Assembly: GCA_036677065.1 (NCBI GenBank)
Contig: JAKFBS010000008.1
Coordinates: 32,001-96,000, forward strand
DNA: 64,000 bases
Source: Bdellovibrio sp.
Lineage (GTDB): Bacteria > Bdellovibrionota > Bdellovibrionia > Bdellovibrionales > Bdellovibrionaceae
Direction: 5' to 3'
Each line of letters opens with the position of its first letter. Position 1 is the stretch's first letter. Shown here in pieces: positions 45,349-53,530 of this stretch. The translations under genes and the position numbers were made by a program. A model generated the notes under the pieces. The model did no database searches. It saw only the letters and a list, made by a program, of their open reading frames with translations, and had not been told where the DNA came from.

Positions 45349-46062
45349 ATGAAAAGCTTTGCGGTTTTAGTTCTACTTGTATTCTTGCAGTCGTTGCCAG
45401 CTTTGGCCGGCCAAACCTCGTGCGAAGCCAGCAAGAAGAATCTTCTATCTGATGATCTTTTAAAAAAGCTTACGGTTAAAGTTTGCCCACCTGAAAATAC
45501 TTCAGATCCTGATGTCTATATGGAATACGACAGAGCCTATGAATCATCGACGGCCAGCGAATTTCTGGTTTATCAATACACCGACAAATGCTTTGATAAA
45601 ATTAATCGCGAATTATTTAAAACTACAGAGCAAAATCCCGATGTTTTGCAATTAGCCGAGCAATTAGACGCAGTTCTTTGTGATTACCCAATCAGTGAAA
45701 AAGAAGTTTTTCGCGGAGCCAATTTGCCTGAAGCTGTCGCTGAGAAATATCACGCTTCAGAAGAAGTTAGCTTTCCGGCTTTTTCGAGCACGTCGATGGC
45801 ATTCAATGTGGGGTGTGAATTTGCAAAAAAAGGAAATACCTTATTTAAAATCGTTTCGAAATCAGGGCGTGTTGTTGAAAATCAATCTAAACACGATCAA
45901 GAGGCTGAAGTTTTATTTCGCATGAATGCGCACTTTAAAGTAAAAGTCGCGGCATCAGGCTTTCAGGCAACAACCATGTCAGGTTGTAAAGGCATCAGTA
46001 ATTATTTTGAATTAGAAGAAATTTACACCGACGAGATGAAGCCGTTCGTATGGCCATATTAA
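45349..46062 (+). CDS. secreted ADP-ribosyltransferase (R-S-E clade)
   Basis: signal peptide; VFRG, FSSTS, QEAEVLF. Confidence 0.85.
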   Translation: MKSFAVLVLLVFLQSLPALAGQTSCEASKKNLLSDDLLKKLTVKVCPPENTSDPDVYMEYDRAYESSTASEFLVYQYTDKCFDKINRELFKTTEQNPDVLQLAEQLDAVLCDYPISEKEVFRGANLPEAVAEKYHASEEVSFPAFSSTSMAFNVGCEFAKKGNTLFKIVSKSGRVVENQSKHDQEAEVLFRMNAHFKVKVAASGFQATTMSGCKGISNYFELEEIYTDEMKPFVWPY

Positions 46063-46118
46063 AGGTAGGCCGTTCCTTTTTGGGGAGCGGCGTGACATGA
46101 AATAGGACCTGGCACCAA

Positions 46119-47219
46119 TTAAACGTTAAACTTGAAGAAAAGAATGTCGCCGTCTTTGACGATGTACTCTTTGCCTTCAGAGCGGTATTTGCCGGCTTCT
46201 TTAACCGCTGCTTCAGATTTTAAATTAAATAAATCTTCGCAGTGGTAGGCTTCGGCACGGATGAAACCTTTTTCGAAATCAGTATGGATTACACCGGCAG
46301 CTTGTGGGGCTTTGAAACCAGTTTTAATGGTCCAAGCACGCACTTCTTTTTCACCAGCTGTAAAGTATGTGGCTAATCCTAATAAAGCATAAGCTTCGCG
46401 GATTAGACGGTTTAAGCCTGGCTCTGTAGCGCCTAATGAATCTAAGAAATCTTTGCGCTCTTCAGGAGGTAACTGAGAAATCTCGGCTTCCATCGCAGAA
46501 CAGATCATAATTGTTTTATTGTTTTCTTCAGCGGCGCGTTTTTCAACTGCGCGTACCCAGTCATTACCACCGGCAGCGAAATCTGTATCAGATACGTTAC
46601 AAGCATAAAGAACTGGTTTAGAAGTTAATAAGTGCATCTCGCGAGCGTAAGGGGCTTCAAGATCATTCAACACAACTGAACGAGCAGGTTTACCTTGCGC
46701 TAAAGCTGCATGAAGACGTTGTGTCACATCAAGATCCATTTTTACTTTTGGATCTGAAGATGTTTTTGCCATCTTTTCGACTTTTTTTAATTTTTTATCA
46801 GCGTTATCAAAGTCAGCTAACATTAATTCAGTGTTGATCACATCAACGTCGCGAAGTGGATCTACTGAACCAGATACGTGAATAACATTTGGATCATCAA
46901 AACAACGAACCACGTGAACGATAGCATCAGTTTGTTTGATGTGACCTAAGAATTGATTTCCTAAACCTTCACCTTGGCTTGCGCCTTTTACGATACCGGC
47001 GATATCAACGAATTCCATTGTTGTTGGAATTATGCTTTGTGGTTTTACGAAAGCCGTAATTTGATCAAGACGAGAATCTGGAACGATCACGATACCCACG
47101 TTTGGATCGATTGTGCAAAACGGGTAGTTCGCAGCCTCGGCTTTTGCAGAAGTTAAAGCATTAAATAATGTAGATTTACCTACGTTTGGAAGACCTACGA
47201 TACCAACTTGTAAAGCCAT
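46119..47219 (-). CDS. ychF: redox-regulated ATPase YchF
   Basis: GIVGLPNVGKSTLFN, NYPFCTIDPN, DIAG, TGS-like C-terminus. Confidence 0.98.
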   Translation of the reverse strand: MALQVGIVGLPNVGKSTLFNALTSAKAEAANYPFCTIDPNVGIVIVPDSRLDQITAFVKPQSIIPTTMEFVDIAGIVKGASQGEGLGNQFLGHIKQTDAIVHVVRCFDDPNVIHVSGSVDPLRDVDVINTELMLADFDNADKKLKKVEKMAKTSSDPKVKMDLDVTQRLHAALAQGKPARSVVLNDLEAPYAREMHLLTSKPVLYACNVSDTDFAAGGNDWVRAVEKRAAEENNKTIMICSAMEAEISQLPPEERKDFLDSLGATEPGLNRLIREAYALLGLATYFTAGEKEVRAWTIKTGFKAPQAAGVIHTDFEKGFIRAEAYHCEDLFNLKSEAAVKEAGKYRSEGKEYIVKDGDILFFKFNV

Positions 47220-47265
47220 GACTTGTTCCTTTGCGTGTCTTCGACACGACTTCTACTCAGAAAAA

Positions 47266-47847
47266 CTAAGGCTCGAGCTTAACAGGTCCGTTGAACTTTG
47301 TTGAGGCTTTATTTATGCCTTCTAATATAAAGGATTCGATGGCATCTGATGCAGTCTCTAAAACCTTATCTAGGTTTGTTTGCTCTTCTTTTGAGAAGTT
47401 TCCTAAGACGTAGTCAGCTAGCGCGAAATCAGGATGAGATGGGCGCCCCACGCCTAAACGAAGGCGAGCATATTCTTGAGTACCTAAGAGCTGGGTAATG
47501 CTTTTTACGCCGTTCTGGCCGCCAGCGCTGCGGTTAAATTGCATTTTAATTGTTCCAAATGCGAAATCCACTTCGTCGTGAACTACAAGTAAGTTAGCGC
47601 GATCAATTTTATAGAAATTCATTAACGCTACAACTGATTCGCCAGACAAATTCATAAACGTCTGAGGTTTGGCTAAGAGAACCTCTTTACCTTCGATTTT
47701 GAATTTTTTGGTCATCGCTTTGTGCTCGTCGCGCCAGTCAGCGCCACCTAAAGATTTTAACCAGTAGTCAGCGGCCATGAACCCAATATTATGACGGGTC
47801 ATTGCGTATTTAGAACCTGGATTTCCTAAGCCTGCGATTAAGTACAT
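47266..47847 (-). CDS. pth: peptidyl-tRNA hydrolase
   Basis: GLGNPG..Y..TRHNIGF, KPQTFMNLSG. Confidence 0.97.
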   Translation of the reverse strand: MYLIAGLGNPGSKYAMTRHNIGFMAADYWLKSLGGADWRDEHKAMTKKFKIEGKEVLLAKPQTFMNLSGESVVALMNFYKIDRANLLVVHDEVDFAFGTIKMQFNRSAGGQNGVKSITQLLGTQEYARLRLGVGRPSHPDFALADYVLGNFSKEEQTNLDKVLETASDAIESFILEGINKASTKFNGPVKLEP

Positions 47848-48014
47848 ATTCTAAATGTAACTTAAGCAGCTTTATATTAGCAATAGCTGCCGCAGCGATC
47901 GTCCAAAATGTAGACGAAACTAGCATTTTTTCACGACTCGCAATCAACACAACAAATTTTAATTTTTGCTGCTATAAATCCATCCATACAAATAAAAAAC
48001 TAACAGGAGAATTT

Positions 48015-48401
48015 ATGAAATCTTTAGCGATGGCGCTATTAGTATTGGGTTTTGCACAAGCTGGCTTTGCCGTTGAAACACAAGAATTAAAGTGTGCTGA
48101 TCAGGCCGTAAAAGCCGCGACTTTAAATAACTTTAAACGTTTTAATGCTTCGACTGGTTCATGTGGCGCGAAACTTTTAACAGCAGGAGATTATTTAGAA
48201 ACATACTTAGTTTGTGTAAGTGATGAAACTGAACCATCTGAGTGGATTGTGGTTATGTCTAAAAAGGGCGACAAATGTAAAGTCAAATATGCTGATAATC
48301 AGTATGACTCTGAAACACCGAACTTTGAATCAAGCGAAGGTTTATTAAAAACTGTAGAGTGTTCAATTGATTACGGTGATAACAAATTAGTTTGTAAGTA
48401 A
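48015..48401 (+). CDS. small secreted Cys-containing hypothetical protein
   Basis: strong SD, signal peptide, 6 Cys; sits antisense between pth and rplY. Confidence 0.75.
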   Translation: MKSLAMALLVLGFAQAGFAVETQELKCADQAVKAATLNNFKRFNASTGSCGAKLLTAGDYLETYLVCVSDETEPSEWIVVMSKKGDKCKVKYADNQYDSETPNFESSEGLLKTVECSIDYGDNKLVCK

Positions 48402-48440
48402 TTTCGATTTTAAATTTAGAAACTCTGTTTTGAAGTTCAA

Positions 48441-48478
48441 AAATAAAAAAGGCGATGTTTCCATCGCCTTTTTTATTT
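48441..48478. terminator. bidirectional intrinsic terminator
   Basis: AAATAAAAAAGGCGATG-TTTC-CATCGCCTTTTTTATTT. Confidence 0.85.
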
Positions 48479-48513
48479 GTAACGCTTCGCCTATCAGATA
48501 GGGAACTGTTACC

Positions 48514-49200
48514 TTATTTTTTTGCTGCTGGTTTAGCTGCTGCTGGAGCTTTCGCGCCTGCTGCTGCCGCTGGAGCTTTTCCACCCGCTGCTGCTGCTGG
48601 AGCTGCTGCCGCTGCAACAACTGGTGCTGCAACAACTTCGTCTTCTTGTTCAACAACTGCTGCGATTGTAACTTCAGGACGAGAGATAAGTTTAACTCCC
48701 GCTGGCATTGTTAATTCAGAAGCATGTAATGAATCGCCTACGCCTAAGTTAGATACGTCTAAAGTTAAGAAATCAGGGATTGCTGTTGGTAAACACTCAA
48801 TCTCAACTGAACGCATAACGATATTTAATAATCCGCCTTCAGCAAGACCGATCGCTTTACCTTCGATTTTGATCTCTACAGATACGCGAACTGCTTTGTT
48901 CATGTCTAATGCGAAAAAATCAACGTGTTCTGGACGACGAGATAATGGGTTAACTTGTACAGATTTAATTAAAGCAACTTTACCGTTTAATTTAGAATCA
49001 GAAGATTTTAAAGTTAATAAAGCATTCTCGTAAGCACGAGTGTTGTATTTTAAGATATCATTTACGTGTACAGATACGTTTTGGTTTTCCATAGCTCCGT
49101 AGATTACGGCTGGAACCATTTTGTTAACGCGTAATTCGCGTGAGTTAGCACGGCCGATTTCGCGAGTTGTAACTGTTAATTCAATTCTTTGTTTGCTCAT
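48514..49200 (-). CDS. rplY: 50S ribosomal protein bL25/Ctc
   Basis: VPAVIYG, HVDF, L25 C-terminal domain; start MSKQ at 49200. Confidence 0.95.
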   Translation of the reverse strand: MSKQRIELTVTTREIGRANSRELRVNKMVPAVIYGAMENQNVSVHVNDILKYNTRAYENALLTLKSSDSKLNGKVALIKSVQVNPLSRRPEHVDFFALDMNKAVRVSVEIKIEGKAIGLAEGGLLNIVMRSVEIECLPTAIPDFLTLDVSNLGVGDSLHASELTMPAGVKLISRPEVTIAAVVEQEDEVVAAPVVAAAAAPAAAAGGKAPAAAAGAKAPAAAKPAAKK

Positions 49201-49241
49201 CTTGTTTCCTTGCGTGTCTGCGACACGACTCTCTCTTTGTA

Positions 49242-49281
49242 CCACTTACTCATCAGGCGAAATTGCCTTACTCATCGGTGG
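49242..49281 (-). promoter_or_regulatory. putative bL25-binding leader (5S rRNA loop E mimic)
   Basis: CCAC-C-GAUGAGUA-AGGC-AAUUUC-GCCU-GAUGAGUA-A-GUGG upstream of rplY. Confidence 0.6.
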
Positions 49282-49298
49282 AGTTTGTTTTTATAAAT

Positions 49299-50258
49299 CT
49301 AGTCGAAAAGTGAACTCACTGAATCGTGGTCGTGAATTCTTCTGATCGCTTCAGCTAAAACGCCAGCCACCGAAATGACTTGGATTTTACTGCATTTTTT
49401 CGCCTGCTCAGATAAAGGAATTGTGTCAGTCACAAATACTTTTTCAATGGCACTTTCTTGTAAACGGCTAATAGCCGGTCCAGAAAATACCGCATGCGTA
49501 GCAACGGCGAACACCTGTTTTGCACCATTTTTAAGGAGGCTGTCAACAGCTTGTGTTAGCGTTCCAGCCGTGTCGATCATGTCATCCACGATCACTGCAA
49601 TTTTACCCTGAACATCGCCGATTAAATGCATCGCTTTAGCTTCGTTTGGAGCGGTTCTGCGCTTGTCGATAATGGCCATAGTCGAACCAATTCGTTTAGA
49701 GAAGGCGCGAGCGCGTTCAACGCCTCCGGCATCGGGACTTACGGTCACAAAACTATCACCATCACCGTAAGCGTCTTTCCAGGCACGGGCCATGGTCGGA
49801 ACTGCGAATAAGTGATCCACTGGGCAGTTGAAAAAGCCTTGAATTTGGGCAGCATGAAGATCAACTGATACTACGCGATCGGCTCCTGCTGTTGTGATTA
49901 GATCGGCCATACATTTTGCTGTGATCGGCGCTCGTGGTGCAACTTTACGATCTTGGCGGGCATAACCGTAATACGGAATGACGGCCGTGATTGAAGCGGC
50001 AGAAGCGCGTTTAAGGGCATCAAGAATAATAAATAATTCCATGTAAGATTGATTTACTGGCGGACAAGTACTTTGGATCACAAAGATATCTTTTCCGCGC
50101 ACTGATTCGTGAATTTCGACTTGGATTTCGCCGTCAGAAAAGCTTGTGACTTTGCTTTCTCCGAGCGGAATTCCTAAAATACTGCAGACTTGTTTTGAAA
50201 GTTCGAGGTTTGTATTACCTGCGAACACCTTAAAATTTTGGTTTTTTGCATCTGTCAT
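49299..50258 (-). CDS. prs: ribose-phosphate pyrophosphokinase
   Basis: FSDGE, PYYGYARQDRK, DLHA.QIQGFF, VDDMIDTAGT. Confidence 0.98.
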   Translation of the reverse strand: MTDAKNQNFKVFAGNTNLELSKQVCSILGIPLGESKVTSFSDGEIQVEIHESVRGKDIFVIQSTCPPVNQSYMELFIILDALKRASAASITAVIPYYGYARQDRKVAPRAPITAKCMADLITTAGADRVVSVDLHAAQIQGFFNCPVDHLFAVPTMARAWKDAYGDGDSFVTVSPDAGGVERARAFSKRIGSTMAIIDKRRTAPNEAKAMHLIGDVQGKIAVIVDDMIDTAGTLTQAVDSLLKNGAKQVFAVATHAVFSGPAISRLQESAIEKVFVTDTIPLSEQAKKCSKIQVISVAGVLAEAIRRIHDHDSVSSLFD

Positions 50259-50282
50259 TAATCCCCCTATGACGTTTTGCAG

Positions 50283-50894
50283 TTACTTTGCTGAATTCAA
50301 TTTCGAAATAAATTGATTTAGCGCTTGAGCTCTGTGCGAGTGCTGGATCTTATAACCGGGACCCAGTTCTGCCAGAGTTTTAGTTTCATTTTCAGGAACA
50401 AATACCGGATCGTAACCAAAGCCCATTTGTCCAGTGGCCTTTGAACTGATCACGCCTTTCATAACGCCTTCGAAAATCCATTCTTGCCGTCCGCCCGGCG
50501 CATTATCGGGTGTAAGTACAACCGTCACACATTTAAACTGGGCTGTGCGCGGTGAAATATTTCTAATTTGCATCATCTTTAAAAGTTTTGCGACGTTCTC
50601 AGAGTCAGCTGCGTTTGCACCTGCGTATCTTGCTGAGTGAACGCCGGGAAGATTATTTAAACCAGTCACTTCAAGACCTGCGTCTTCACCTAACACAAAA
50701 GCGTCAGGCTTAATGGCTTTTAATGTTTTTGCTTTGATACGCGCATTATCTAAAAAAGTTGCGCCGTCTTCTGGGCGGGCCGTGAAACCTTTGATTTCGC
50801 CTTGATGAAAAAGTTGAATCTCTGGCAATGCACGCAAGGCCATTTTGTATTCTTCAAGTTTACCTTTGTTGCCAGTGGCGATCCAAAGTTCCAT
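50283..50894 (-). CDS. rdgB: non-canonical purine NTP pyrophosphatase (Ham1 family)
   Basis: ATGNKGK, NA.IKA, PGVHSARY, GFGYDPVF, SHR. Confidence 0.93.
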   Translation of the reverse strand: MELWIATGNKGKLEEYKMALRALPEIQLFHQGEIKGFTARPEDGATFLDNARIKAKTLKAIKPDAFVLGEDAGLEVTGLNNLPGVHSARYAGANAADSENVAKLLKMMQIRNISPRTAQFKCVTVVLTPDNAPGGRQEWIFEGVMKGVISSKATGQMGFGYDPVFVPENETKTLAELGPGYKIQHSHRAQALNQFISKLNSAK

Positions 50895-50896
50895 CG

Positions 50897-51667
50897 TTAG
50901 GCCTTAACCAGCGGATAATATTCGCCGATAATTTTTTGTTGGTATTCAAATAATTCTTTGCAGCCGTGTTCAGCGATCGTCATCATGTCAAACAATTGTT
51001 GACGTGAGAATGTGCCTTCTTCGGCTGTGCCTTGCACTTCGATAAATTCATTTTTGTTCGTCATCACGAAATTCATATCGGTGCCGATATCAGAGTCTTC
51101 ATCGTAATTTAAATCTAAGATAGGAATTAAATTATTTTTATCATCTTCAAAAAGACCCACAGAAATTGCAGCGACGTAATGTTTGATCGGATTAGTTTTA
51201 ATTTCGCCAAGCGCTTGTAATTTTTTACACGCTAAAGCTAACGCCACGAAACCACCAGTGACAGCCGCGGTGCGAGTTCCGCCGTCAGCATTGATCACAT
51301 CACAATCGATGATGATTTGTTTTTCGCCTAAGTTTTTTAACTCAACACATGAACGAAGACTGCGTCCAACTAATCTTGAAATTTCTTGCGTACGACCACC
51401 ACTTGCGGTTTTTTCGCGTTTCATGCGTGTGTGAGTAGAACGCGGTAACATGCCATATTCAGCAGTGACCCAACCAGCCCCAGAGCCTGCAAGCCATTGC
51501 GGAGCTTTCGATTCGTAAGTCGCTGTACAAAGTACGCGGGTGTTTCCGAATTCAACTAAAGCAGAGCCTTCAGCGTAGTCTGAAACATTCGCCGTAATTT
51601 TAATTTGGCGAAGTTGATTGTGAAGACGTTTGTCGGCGCGAACGAAGTGTTGAGATGGATTTGTCAT
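50897..51667 (-). CDS. rph: ribonuclease PH
   Basis: GWVTAEYGMLPRST, GRTQEISRL.GR, ADGGTRTA. Confidence 0.97.
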   Translation of the reverse strand: MTNPSQHFVRADKRLHNQLRQIKITANVSDYAEGSALVEFGNTRVLCTATYESKAPQWLAGSGAGWVTAEYGMLPRSTHTRMKREKTASGGRTQEISRLVGRSLRSCVELKNLGEKQIIIDCDVINADGGTRTAAVTGGFVALALACKKLQALGEIKTNPIKHYVAAISVGLFEDDKNNLIPILDLNYDEDSDIGTDMNFVMTNKNEFIEVQGTAEEGTFSRQQLFDMMTIAEHGCKELFEYQQKIIGEYYPLVKA

Positions 51668-51709
51668 GCTTGATATAACACTAAATCCTCGAGTGAAAGT
51701 AAAGGGAAT

Positions 51710-52414
51710 CTAGAGTGAATTTTTATAAGCGTAAATACTTTTGACGATCGTTTCAGCAATCTCTTGTTGACGCTCTTCGGTGAGGAGCAGTTTCGCTTCG
51801 CTTAAATTAGAAATATAGCCAATTTCAATCAGCGCAGAAGGCATTGTGGTTTTCTCGATCACGAAAAATGGCGCGCGTTTAATTACAGTTTTAGAGTCTG
51901 ACCCTAGGGCTTTGACTTGGTTTTGCAAAATTTGATTAAACTTAAGACTCTGTCTGGTTTGGCCAAAGCTTGTCAGATCGCCAATAATTTTTTTTACTCC
52001 GGTCGAGGCTTCAATCGCAGGCATTTTTATAGCGTAAACACCTTTTTTAAAATAGAACTCCATGCCGCTTACATAACTTGCCTGTGAAGAGTTAGCGTGA
52101 AGACTAATAAAAAGATCAGCGCTTTGTCGTTCGGCCACTTTTACGCGATTTTCTAAGGATAAACTTTTGTTTGTTTCACGAGTGAGAATCACTTCGATAT
52201 TCTGTGAGAACTGGCTTTGAATCAGGCTCTGGATTTTTTGCGCTACTTTAAGCGTAATGTCAGACTCTTTGAAAATTCCGCGCACAGCCCCAACGTCGAC
52301 CCCACCGTGTCCCGGATCAATCACCAATACAAAAGGTTTTGCGACTGGTTGAGCGATATTGGCCCGAGCCGTCAGAGTGAATAGTAAAATTGGGATAAGT
52401 AATGCGTATCGCAT
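51710..52414 (-). CDS. N-acetylmuramoyl-L-alanine amidase (Amidase_3)
   Basis: IDPGHGG, LFISLHAN, LIEIGYISN. Confidence 0.92.
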   Translation of the reverse strand: MRYALLIPILLFTLTARANIAQPVAKPFVLVIDPGHGGVDVGAVRGIFKESDITLKVAQKIQSLIQSQFSQNIEVILTRETNKSLSLENRVKVAERQSADLFISLHANSSQASYVSGMEFYFKKGVYAIKMPAIEASTGVKKIIGDLTSFGQTRQSLKFNQILQNQVKALGSDSKTVIKRAPFFVIEKTTMPSALIEIGYISNLSEAKLLLTEERQQEIAETIVKSIYAYKNSL

Positions 52415-52454
52415 TTCTTAATTTAAGCATTTTTTTGGGCGTATGAGATAAGAG

Positions 52455-52509
52455 AAAAAAAAAGACGGCCAGGTAAAGGGGGGGGATGCCTAGCCGCCAT
52501 GGGGGGTGC
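52455..52509 (-). ncRNA. putative ~55-nt C-rich small RNA
   Basis: starts at the expected +1 of a sigma54 promoter; 10-bp stem with C8 loop and U9 tail. Confidence 0.6.
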
Positions 52510-52520
52510 TTTTATATAGA

Positions 52521-52535
52521 GCAATAGTGTGACCA
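52521..52535 (-). promoter_or_regulatory. sigma54 (-24/-12) promoter
   Basis: TGGTCACACTATTGC = GG-N10-GC with TTGC. Confidence 0.65.
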
Positions 52536-52666
52536 AGTTTTAAAGCAATTTATACGATTTGAGCTGTATATCCACTGGACAGTGACGCGAAACGCGCGTC
52601 ACTGGATGCTTGAGGCGGAATAGGTCGAAAAAAGCTGGTTCTAAGTTTGCTTTTTAATTTGCGTAT

Positions 52667-53530
52667 ATGCAGTTGATTCAAAAAATGCCTTTTTCTGAAT
52701 TCAAAGCCCGCTTATCGAGTGCGGTTTCTAATGCAAATAAGCATGATATTTTTGTTATGGCCAGTTCTTTGGCCTATACGACAGCGCTGGCGCTGGCTCC
52801 GTTTTTGTTAATTACTTTATCGTTTGCATCATTACTGTCGCCAGACTTGCAGCAAAATATTTACGAAGGATTAACAACCGCGGTCGGTGAAAAAATTGCG
52901 GGAACCATATTGGCGATGATTGAAAGTGCAGACAGTAATCCAAAACTTTCAGGAATATCCGGAGTGATCGGGGTTATTGTTTTAGCTATTTCAGCTTCGG
53001 CTATTTTTTCGAATCTAAAAATCGCTTTAGATAAAATCAATGAACACGCTTTTGCCAAAGACCCCAGTGGTTTCTGGATTTTTGTTAAAGGTAAATTGTT
53101 TTCGATGGGCTTAGTTTTTGGTTTTGCCTTTTTATCAGTGGCCTCTTTAGTTTTTACCATGGTGATTGCGATTATTTATCCAGAAGGCATGGGTTTTTTT
53201 TGGGGCTTAGTCTCGTTTGCCGTTAATTTTAGTTTATTTGCCTTGGTGTTTAGTGCCATTTACCGGTTTGTCCCGACAGATAAGGCGACTTATAAAAGTT
53301 GTATCATTTCAGGCGTGATCAGTACGATTTTTTATTTAATCGGCAAACGGGTTATTGGCTTGTATCTGGGAAATGCAGGACTTGAGTCCTCATACGGGGC
53401 TGCGGGGTCGTTAATTGTGTTATTAGTATGGGTTTATTACACCGCTTTAACTTTACTTTTCAGTTACGAATTCACTCGTGACGTCATTCTTAAAAAAGAT
53501 TTAACAGATAATTCGCAAATAGAAACATAA
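52667..53530 (+). CDS. YihY/virulence factor BrkB family membrane protein
   Basis: ASSLAY...LALAP, YGAAGSLIVLLVWVYY. Confidence 0.92.
   Translation: MQLIQKMPFSEFKARLSSAVSNANKHDIFVMASSLAYTTALALAPFLLITLSFASLLSPDLQQNIYEGLTTAVGEKIAGTILAMIESADSNPKLSGISGVIGVIVLAISASAIFSNLKIALDKINEHAFAKDPSGFWIFVKGKLFSMGLVFGFAFLSVASLVFTMVIAIIYPEGMGFFWGLVSFAVNFSLFALVFSAIYRFVPTDKATYKSCIISGVISTIFYLIGKRVIGLYLGNAGLESSYGAAGSLIVLLVWVYYTALTLLFSYEFTRDVILKKDLTDNSQIET

Follow-up and report, generated by a model that had tools for sequence, protein, structure and literature searches.

Autoregulation by ribosomal protein bL25 is documented only for gammaproteobacteria with a short L25, according to PMC4408793 and to PMC10931766, which restates it. 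As described in PMC4408793 and PMC7247131, the L25-Gammaproteobacteria leader (RF03131) is an irregular hairpin just upstream of rplY, with bL25 as the proposed ligand and translational feedback as the proposed mechanism. In E. coli, L25 lowers the expression of its own mRNA about threefold, and leaders of this type are confined to families that have a short one-domain L25, a weak Shine-Dalgarno sequence, and a stand-alone gene (PMC4408793). Hairpin HII of E. coli has a GUCG loop, and the authors see no resemblance to loop E of 5S rRNA (PMC4408793). As for the gammaproteobacterial hairpin, its likeness to loop E could be neither suggested nor excluded by the authors (PMC4408793 and PMC10931766).

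The leaders for L20, S15, and S4 imitate rRNA (PMC7247131), and the element that we describe here resembles them in placing an rRNA site on varied scaffolds across lineages and in its narrow distribution. No L25 leader is among the 20 new motifs listed in that study, and "Bdellovibrio" is absent from four of its supplements, as far as these are searchable. Another study (PMC11109978) reports 30 ribosomal leader candidates; L25 or rplY is absent from its main text, and its supplement may hold an rplY motif. In the literature searched, which lay outside most subscription papers, we found no description of a loop-E mimic in an rplY leader.

A doubled loop-E-like sequence between prs and rplY

In the window (the whole 64,000-nt stretch of DNA that was analysed), the genes around the hairpin are arranged on the minus strand in the order rph, rdgB, prs, rplY, a small ORF on the opposite strand, pth, and ychF. 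The gene just upstream of the hairpin (49299..50258, minus strand) is prs, which encodes ribose-phosphate diphosphokinase (TIGR01251, above the cut-off). The preliminary description had placed the hairpin upstream of rplY, and this is correct: the product of the downstream gene (48514..49200, minus strand) matches TIGR00731 over residues 8-183, with 143.5 bits versus a cut-off of 73.1. It is a long two-domain bL25 of 228 amino acids if translation begins at the ATG at 49200. We rejected an upstream start, the GTG at 49245 in the ORF listing, which is out of frame in several relatives. Residues R13, R21, Y34, H92, and D94 of the protein align with R9, R18, Y31, H88, and D90 of E. coli, which we take to be the residues that contact 5S rRNA. 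The protein is 89-96% identical to proteins in Pseudobdellovibrio, Bdellovibrio sp., or Bdellovibrionota records, and the organism is close to Pseudobdellovibrio.

The hairpin (49242..49281, minus strand) lies within the 98-nt gap between prs and rplY and is present as a single copy. The stop codon of prs is 17 nt upstream of it, at the far end of an A-rich linker (49282..49298, minus strand) that is predicted to be mostly unpaired. No terminator or promoter was predicted between prs and the hairpin, and the hairpin is probably co-transcribed with the two genes. Metatranscriptome contigs from three runs (shares 0.07-0.17) extended over portions of the coding sequence of rplY, as far as 49194, and the leader was covered by none of them.

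On the minus strand, from 49281 to 49242, the hairpin reads CCAC C GAUGAGUA AGGC AAUUUC GCCU GAUGAGUA A GUGG. The two copies of GAUGAGUA (5' strand at 49269..49276 and 3' strand at 49247..49254) face each other in an 8x8 internal loop, with the AGGC/GCCU inner helix and the 6-nt terminal loop (49255..49268) on one side. On the other side, a mismatch of C49277 with A49246 separates the loop from the outer helix. So the 8x8 loop and both helices were described correctly at the outset, but CCAC/GUGG closes the loop only via a C.A mismatch. The 40-mer has a folding energy of -12.3 kcal/mol in the loop-E register (z of -3.07; 1 of 200 shuffles was equally good), and the hairpin is also the minimum-energy fold within contexts of 112 and 146 nt.

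In E. coli, 5S rRNA has GAUGGUA at positions 72-78 and GAGAGUA at 98-104. The same two strands, which the preliminary description had named as bacterial loop E, are found in this genome's own 5S rRNA (genome G000). The 5' loop strand of the hairpin equals 72-78 with one A added, or GAUG(A)GUA, and the 3' strand equals 98-104 with one U added, or GA(U)GAGUA. Going by sequence and register, the oppositions G.A, A.U, U.G, and G.A are read inward from either end of the loop. The series corresponding to G72.A104, A73.U103, U74.G102, and G75.A101 is thus present twice on a helix, head to head, as had been proposed. These equivalents presumably have the non-canonical geometry that is known from the loop E literature, so that the loop would resemble loop E in shape as well.

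Compared to the bL25/TL5 site in 5S rRNA (G72-A78/G98-A104), the hairpin is identical at 72-75 and 101-104 and has equivalents of U77.A99 and A78.G98 at the other end. In contrast to that site, it has eight oppositions instead of seven, an exact two-fold symmetry, and no G76.G100, and the outer closing pair is usually C.A. Native loop E has seven non-Watson-Crick pairs (PMC1976436), and the full series of seven, with G76.G100, is not found in the 8x8 loop. Paired RATGAGTA words that are 10-60 nt apart occur once in the 3.39-Mb genome, versus 0.15 expected by chance. The doubling alone is therefore only mildly unusual, and the case rests on position and conservation.

We compared the locus to known families as well. 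Rfam had nothing near the gathering score in 46000-53000 or 49150-49350 (a match to sR53 was rejected, at 11.8 bits versus a cut-off of 49). RF03131 had no match with E of 10 or less in G000, where 150 of 1072 candidates were scored, and none in 49150-49350. These searches, like those of the literature, agree with the statement in the preliminary description that no such leader was known in this lineage. The element is similar to the RF03131 leader in that a hairpin precedes rplY, the proposed ligand is bL25, and translational feedback is proposed; it differs in having an explicit loop-E sequence, a long two-domain bL25, and a gene that lies behind prs. The terminal loop (AAUUUC, variable among relatives) is unlike the GUCG loop of E. 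coli HII, and the E. coli rplY leader does not pass the half-site rule that is described below. A weak Shine-Dalgarno sequence of the GAGAG type is a feature of RF03131; the likely Shine-Dalgarno sequence here is AAGGA (49207..49211, minus strand, 6 nt upstream of the start codon), and L002, the closest relative, shows only GAGAG.

From the end of the hairpin it is 30 nt to the Shine-Dalgarno sequence and 41 nt to the AUG, and both of these are predicted to be largely unpaired. An 18-nt dispersed repeat hairpin (49212..49229, minus strand) lies between the element and the Shine-Dalgarno sequence; it is not a conserved part of the element, and it pushes the element away from the start codon in this genome. 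The repeat is of the GTCGTGTCGNAGACACGC type, with a three-base loop, and has 10 copies in G000, including another in the window at 47233-47250 (minus strand). Six of the 10 copies are followed, after 9-26 nt, by the ATG of a gene for at least 200 amino acids. These genes include rplY and ychF and, judging by their sequences, what look like eno, dapD, alanine dehydrogenase, and an outer-membrane protein. The repeat is multi-copy in 6 of the 52 genomes searched from the genus, all of them with the double form of the rplY hairpin, and is single-copy in two more (the reversed control gave 0). Its stem shows an exchange of TG/CA to CG/CG. It could be either a REP-like element or a translation-start signal.

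Conservation and covariation in close relatives

Among the 52 genomes from the genus, 49 have a match to rplY, 48 of these were examined, and 46 could be scored (two leaders were too short). Eight of the 46 leaders have the double form, 22 have a forward single form (see below), and 16 have neither. The double form is also found between prs and rplY on two metagenome contigs, for a total of 10 sequences. Across these 10, 14 of the 16 loop bases are invariant. Only the equivalent of G72 varies, and it changes to A in both halves; an A at this position occurs in the actual 5S rRNA of G151.

The stems are more variable, and they covary. Among eight distinct close relatives, three of the four inner-helix pairs are changed on both sides, and the four outer-helix pairs are constant if L008 is set aside. 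L008 keeps the loop on largely replaced, longer stems. Overall, 3 of the 8 stem pairs covary without L008 and 5 of 8 do with it, and none of 500 shuffles matched the number of changed cells. In L224, the first pair of the inner helix is replaced by an A.C mismatch. The distance to the start codon also varies: the gap from hairpin to AUG is 13-17 nt in six double-form relatives that have no repeat hairpin in between, and 36-42 nt in this genome and three relatives that have a repeat-like hairpin there. The loop is intact in all four of the latter.

In a tree built from bL25 and Prs, the nine close double-form sequences form one clade (support of 0.999). Its sister is L008 together with L129, in which the element is absent (joint support of 0.913). 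This tree was built without five loci with short proteins (L068, L267, and L269-L271), and it is not suited to showing whether the element arose more than once in different genera. A model of the double form (R1) had seven strong matches in 151 genomes from the family, all to training members, as well as two weak 22-nt matches (E of 0.02-0.04). The symmetric form is restricted to a narrow lineage and is not a leader of the Bdellovibrionota as a whole: none of 65 genomes from other orders pass even the half-site rule described below, which asks for a single site. The covariation that the preliminary description had suggested checking across rplY leaders of that phylum was seen for the stems in close relatives.

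A pattern scan of metagenomes gave 32 loci. Two of these are located between prs and rplY; no match to bL25 was seen for the remaining 30, several of which are tandem repeats. At one metagenome locus (L198, 1201-1248, minus strand), a well-formed symmetric GAUGAGUA/GAUGAGUA hairpin is upstream of an ORF that looks HNH-like, with no bL25 gene nearby. This hairpin could reflect chance or another use of the motif.

Half-sites on other scaffolds and specificity for rplY

At least six other scaffolds in relatives carry half of the loop, RAUG opposite AGUA on a helix, in front of rplY. These are forward, strand-swapped, or close to a complete 7x7 loop E. (For L126, which is forward, and for L015, L021, and L032, the register was taken from alignments, as it was in the comparison to the loop E strands; the register of L108 is uncertain.) In the other large clade of the genus, RAUG and AGUA appear in the 5S order on a helix of three pairs whose end lies at the Shine-Dalgarno sequence, and 4 of the 11 pairs of this forward single form are changed on both sides among 21 distinct sequences. 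The order of the strands is swapped in other genera of the family: g20 (7 of 7 leaders), g21 (10 of 10), g26 (7 of 8), and one g180 genome. In g26, two named loci (either among these or of the same type) and L303, a case of a second rplY-bearing contig, show the same hairpin by eye. Further versions occur in families f10 (4 of 5 leaders) and f12 (three leaders). The helix next to the equivalent of G72.A104 is paired in all of the groups, and its bases differ among them.

The full 7x7 loop E, with A.A instead of G76.G100, is present in 14 leaders (10 from g21 and 4 from f10), five of which have A98. In G190 (L309 and L360), an A at the equivalent of position 98 is found both in the 5S rRNA and in the mimic in the rplY leader; this is a single case. 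In g21, the start codon supplies, with its A, the last base of the loop (the A78 equivalent), and the Shine-Dalgarno sequence supplies the helix; the g26 hairpin encloses the Shine-Dalgarno sequence. More generally, the module either overlaps the Shine-Dalgarno sequence or the start codon or lies directly next to one of them in g21, g26, g180, and the forward single form.

To count these modules, we used a half-site rule: RATG and AGTA, in either order, on a three-pair helix, at most 130 nt from the start. Because the rule was set after the first leader data had been inspected, and because the relatives are not independent, we read the following counts as enrichments and not as probabilities. 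Of 130 distinct rplY leaders, 42 pass (shuffles: mean of 2.6 and maximum of 7), and 43 of the 2658 ORF starts of G000 pass, rplY included. Among further leaders from the family, 16 of 55 pass (shuffles: mean of 0.9 and maximum of 4). These 55 are what is left of 60 after removing two duplicates and three short regions, and they are deliberately rich in three genera with known matches; outside those genera, 2 of 38 pass. Of 84 later leaders (with one duplicate dropped), just one passes, and it is one of four from the genus; none of the 65 from other orders and none of the 15 further ones from the order do. The rule finds nothing upstream of the neighboring genes prs (0 of 92) or pth (0 of 94). 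A AATGAGTA word upstream of eno was rejected as it is at the end of the preceding gene and the partner strand is absent. Across the genomes searched, the element is patchy and is confined to part of one order.

rplY itself is not universal in the phylum. We found no match to bL25 in 38 of 151 genomes (families f22, f23, f29, and others), including all 11 from f22 and all 7 from f23. Families such as these may have lost rplY lineage-wide.

Proposed feedback by bL25 and other explanations

The hairpin is a real, covarying RNA element that is specific to rplY. It lies directly 5' of a ribosomal protein gene, is single-copy, and copies an rRNA site at the level of sequence, as do other leaders that mimic rRNA. 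We estimate a probability of about three in four that it is a feedback operator for bL25 that acts by rRNA mimicry, as the preliminary description had proposed. The part of that proposal that concerns a copy of loop E tied to rplY is borne out by the comparative evidence, and we infer the binding of bL25 and the resulting repression. Surplus bL25 would bind the hairpin in the way that it binds 5S rRNA, and translation of the bL25 gene would decrease. Bound bL25 would stabilise the hairpin beside the ribosome binding site (or on top of the site, in relatives), so that initiation would fall. Repression is readily envisaged if the ribosome binding site lies within the module, and it is plausible with a gap of 13-17 nt. 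In this genome, occlusion is not obvious because of the distances of 41 and 30 nt and because the start region is predicted to be largely unpaired; here and in the three relatives with long gaps, control may work through a standby site, may be reduced in strength, or may operate in some other way. Also, the validated operator of E. coli does not look like loop E, so bL25 does not need a loop-E mimic, and this counts against the proposal.

Most likely, the hairpin would accommodate a single bL25 at once, which could bind in two equivalent orientations. Of the two copies, the inner would be the better candidate for the primary site because it is closed directly by Watson-Crick pairs. The most serious alternative is that two molecules of bL25 fill two true sites at once, giving a steeper, cooperative response. 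The constraint is the same in both halves (only G72 to A is allowed), and both halves of L008 are closed by Watson-Crick pairs. But the half-sites share the central pairs, so a steric clash seems likely; C.A closes the outer copy in 9 of the 10 sequences; and single half-sites suffice in other genera. Also, the loop corresponds to native loop E with a base added to each strand, which makes "two sites" uncertain: one protein would explain the conservation, and the symmetry may serve to reproduce the two ends of a single loop E and not to provide two sites. We consider simultaneous binding unlikely. It is equally unlikely that the dyad is a natural two-site operator for two bL25 proteins, with a sharper switch, within a set of seven or more half-site scaffolds before rplY in one order.

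Or, bL25 might bind but tune the stability or processing of the mRNA or the coupling of prs to rplY, or control might have decayed here after the repeat was inserted. The 41 nt to the AUG would fit with this, as would the location of the element in the probable prs-rplY transcript, just past the stop codon of prs. On the other hand, the modules of g21, g26, g180, and the forward single form are on or adjoining the Shine-Dalgarno sequence or the start codon, and the loop has remained intact in 4 of 4 genomes with a repeat-like hairpin downstream. We think that a role other than repression is unlikely.

It is less likely still that the hairpin is a structural RNA element or the site of another protein, with its likeness to loop E being a common stable non-canonical stack. 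The half-site is short, and the 1.6 kb of metagenome sequence that contains the symmetric hairpin at L198 has no bL25 gene. However, the half-site is strongly enriched at rplY and not at neighboring genes, full 7x7 copies of bL25's target occur in two groups, and there is a single copy per genome. A DNA-level operator with direct repeats for a transcription factor (GATGAGTAAG repeats with a 22-bp period), or a terminator (a U-rich run comes after the hairpin when the plus strand is read), is very improbable, as the period is 46 bp in L008, changes in the spacer preserve pairing and not sequence, the word is split between the strands, in one order or the other, in the single forms, neither a terminator nor a promoter is predicted at the site, and there is no convergent gene; covariation largely refutes the operator. 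We also rejected a hammerhead core or a C/D box (kink-turn), with motifs CUGAUGA or RUGAUGA, which are broken in L008, L126, L127, and L224.

If bL25 feedback by rRNA mimicry is correct, then bL25 autoregulation extends to the long two-domain form of the protein, and this would be the first plain mimicry of 5S rRNA in an mRNA among the papers that are searchable. The set of scaffolds amounts to a natural mutagenesis of the bL25 site and suggests that the minimal unit is a half-site of four pairs placed on a helix of three. It also shows how fast such regulators are gained, rearranged, and lost.

Other conserved structures were seen near rplY. In g17 and two neighboring genera (L069, L072, L075, L076, L084-L093, L318, and L331), a different conserved hairpin of the CUCUAUYGGACUAGAAGG type lies over the Shine-Dalgarno sequence of rplY; this is possibly a second, unrelated bL25 leader. 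Some rplY leaders from f12 (L027, L038, L039, L041, L049, L117, L118, and L285) have a two-part motif in which GGCGGAYARAGCG and CGCUGGGAAACGCYCC flank an insert that varies; the motif immediately precedes the Shine-Dalgarno sequence and is another candidate leader. In the window, a hairpin flanked by an A-tract and a U-tract (48440-48480) lies between rplY and a convergent ORF of 128 amino acids (48015-48401). It is likely a bidirectional terminator that separates rplY from pth.
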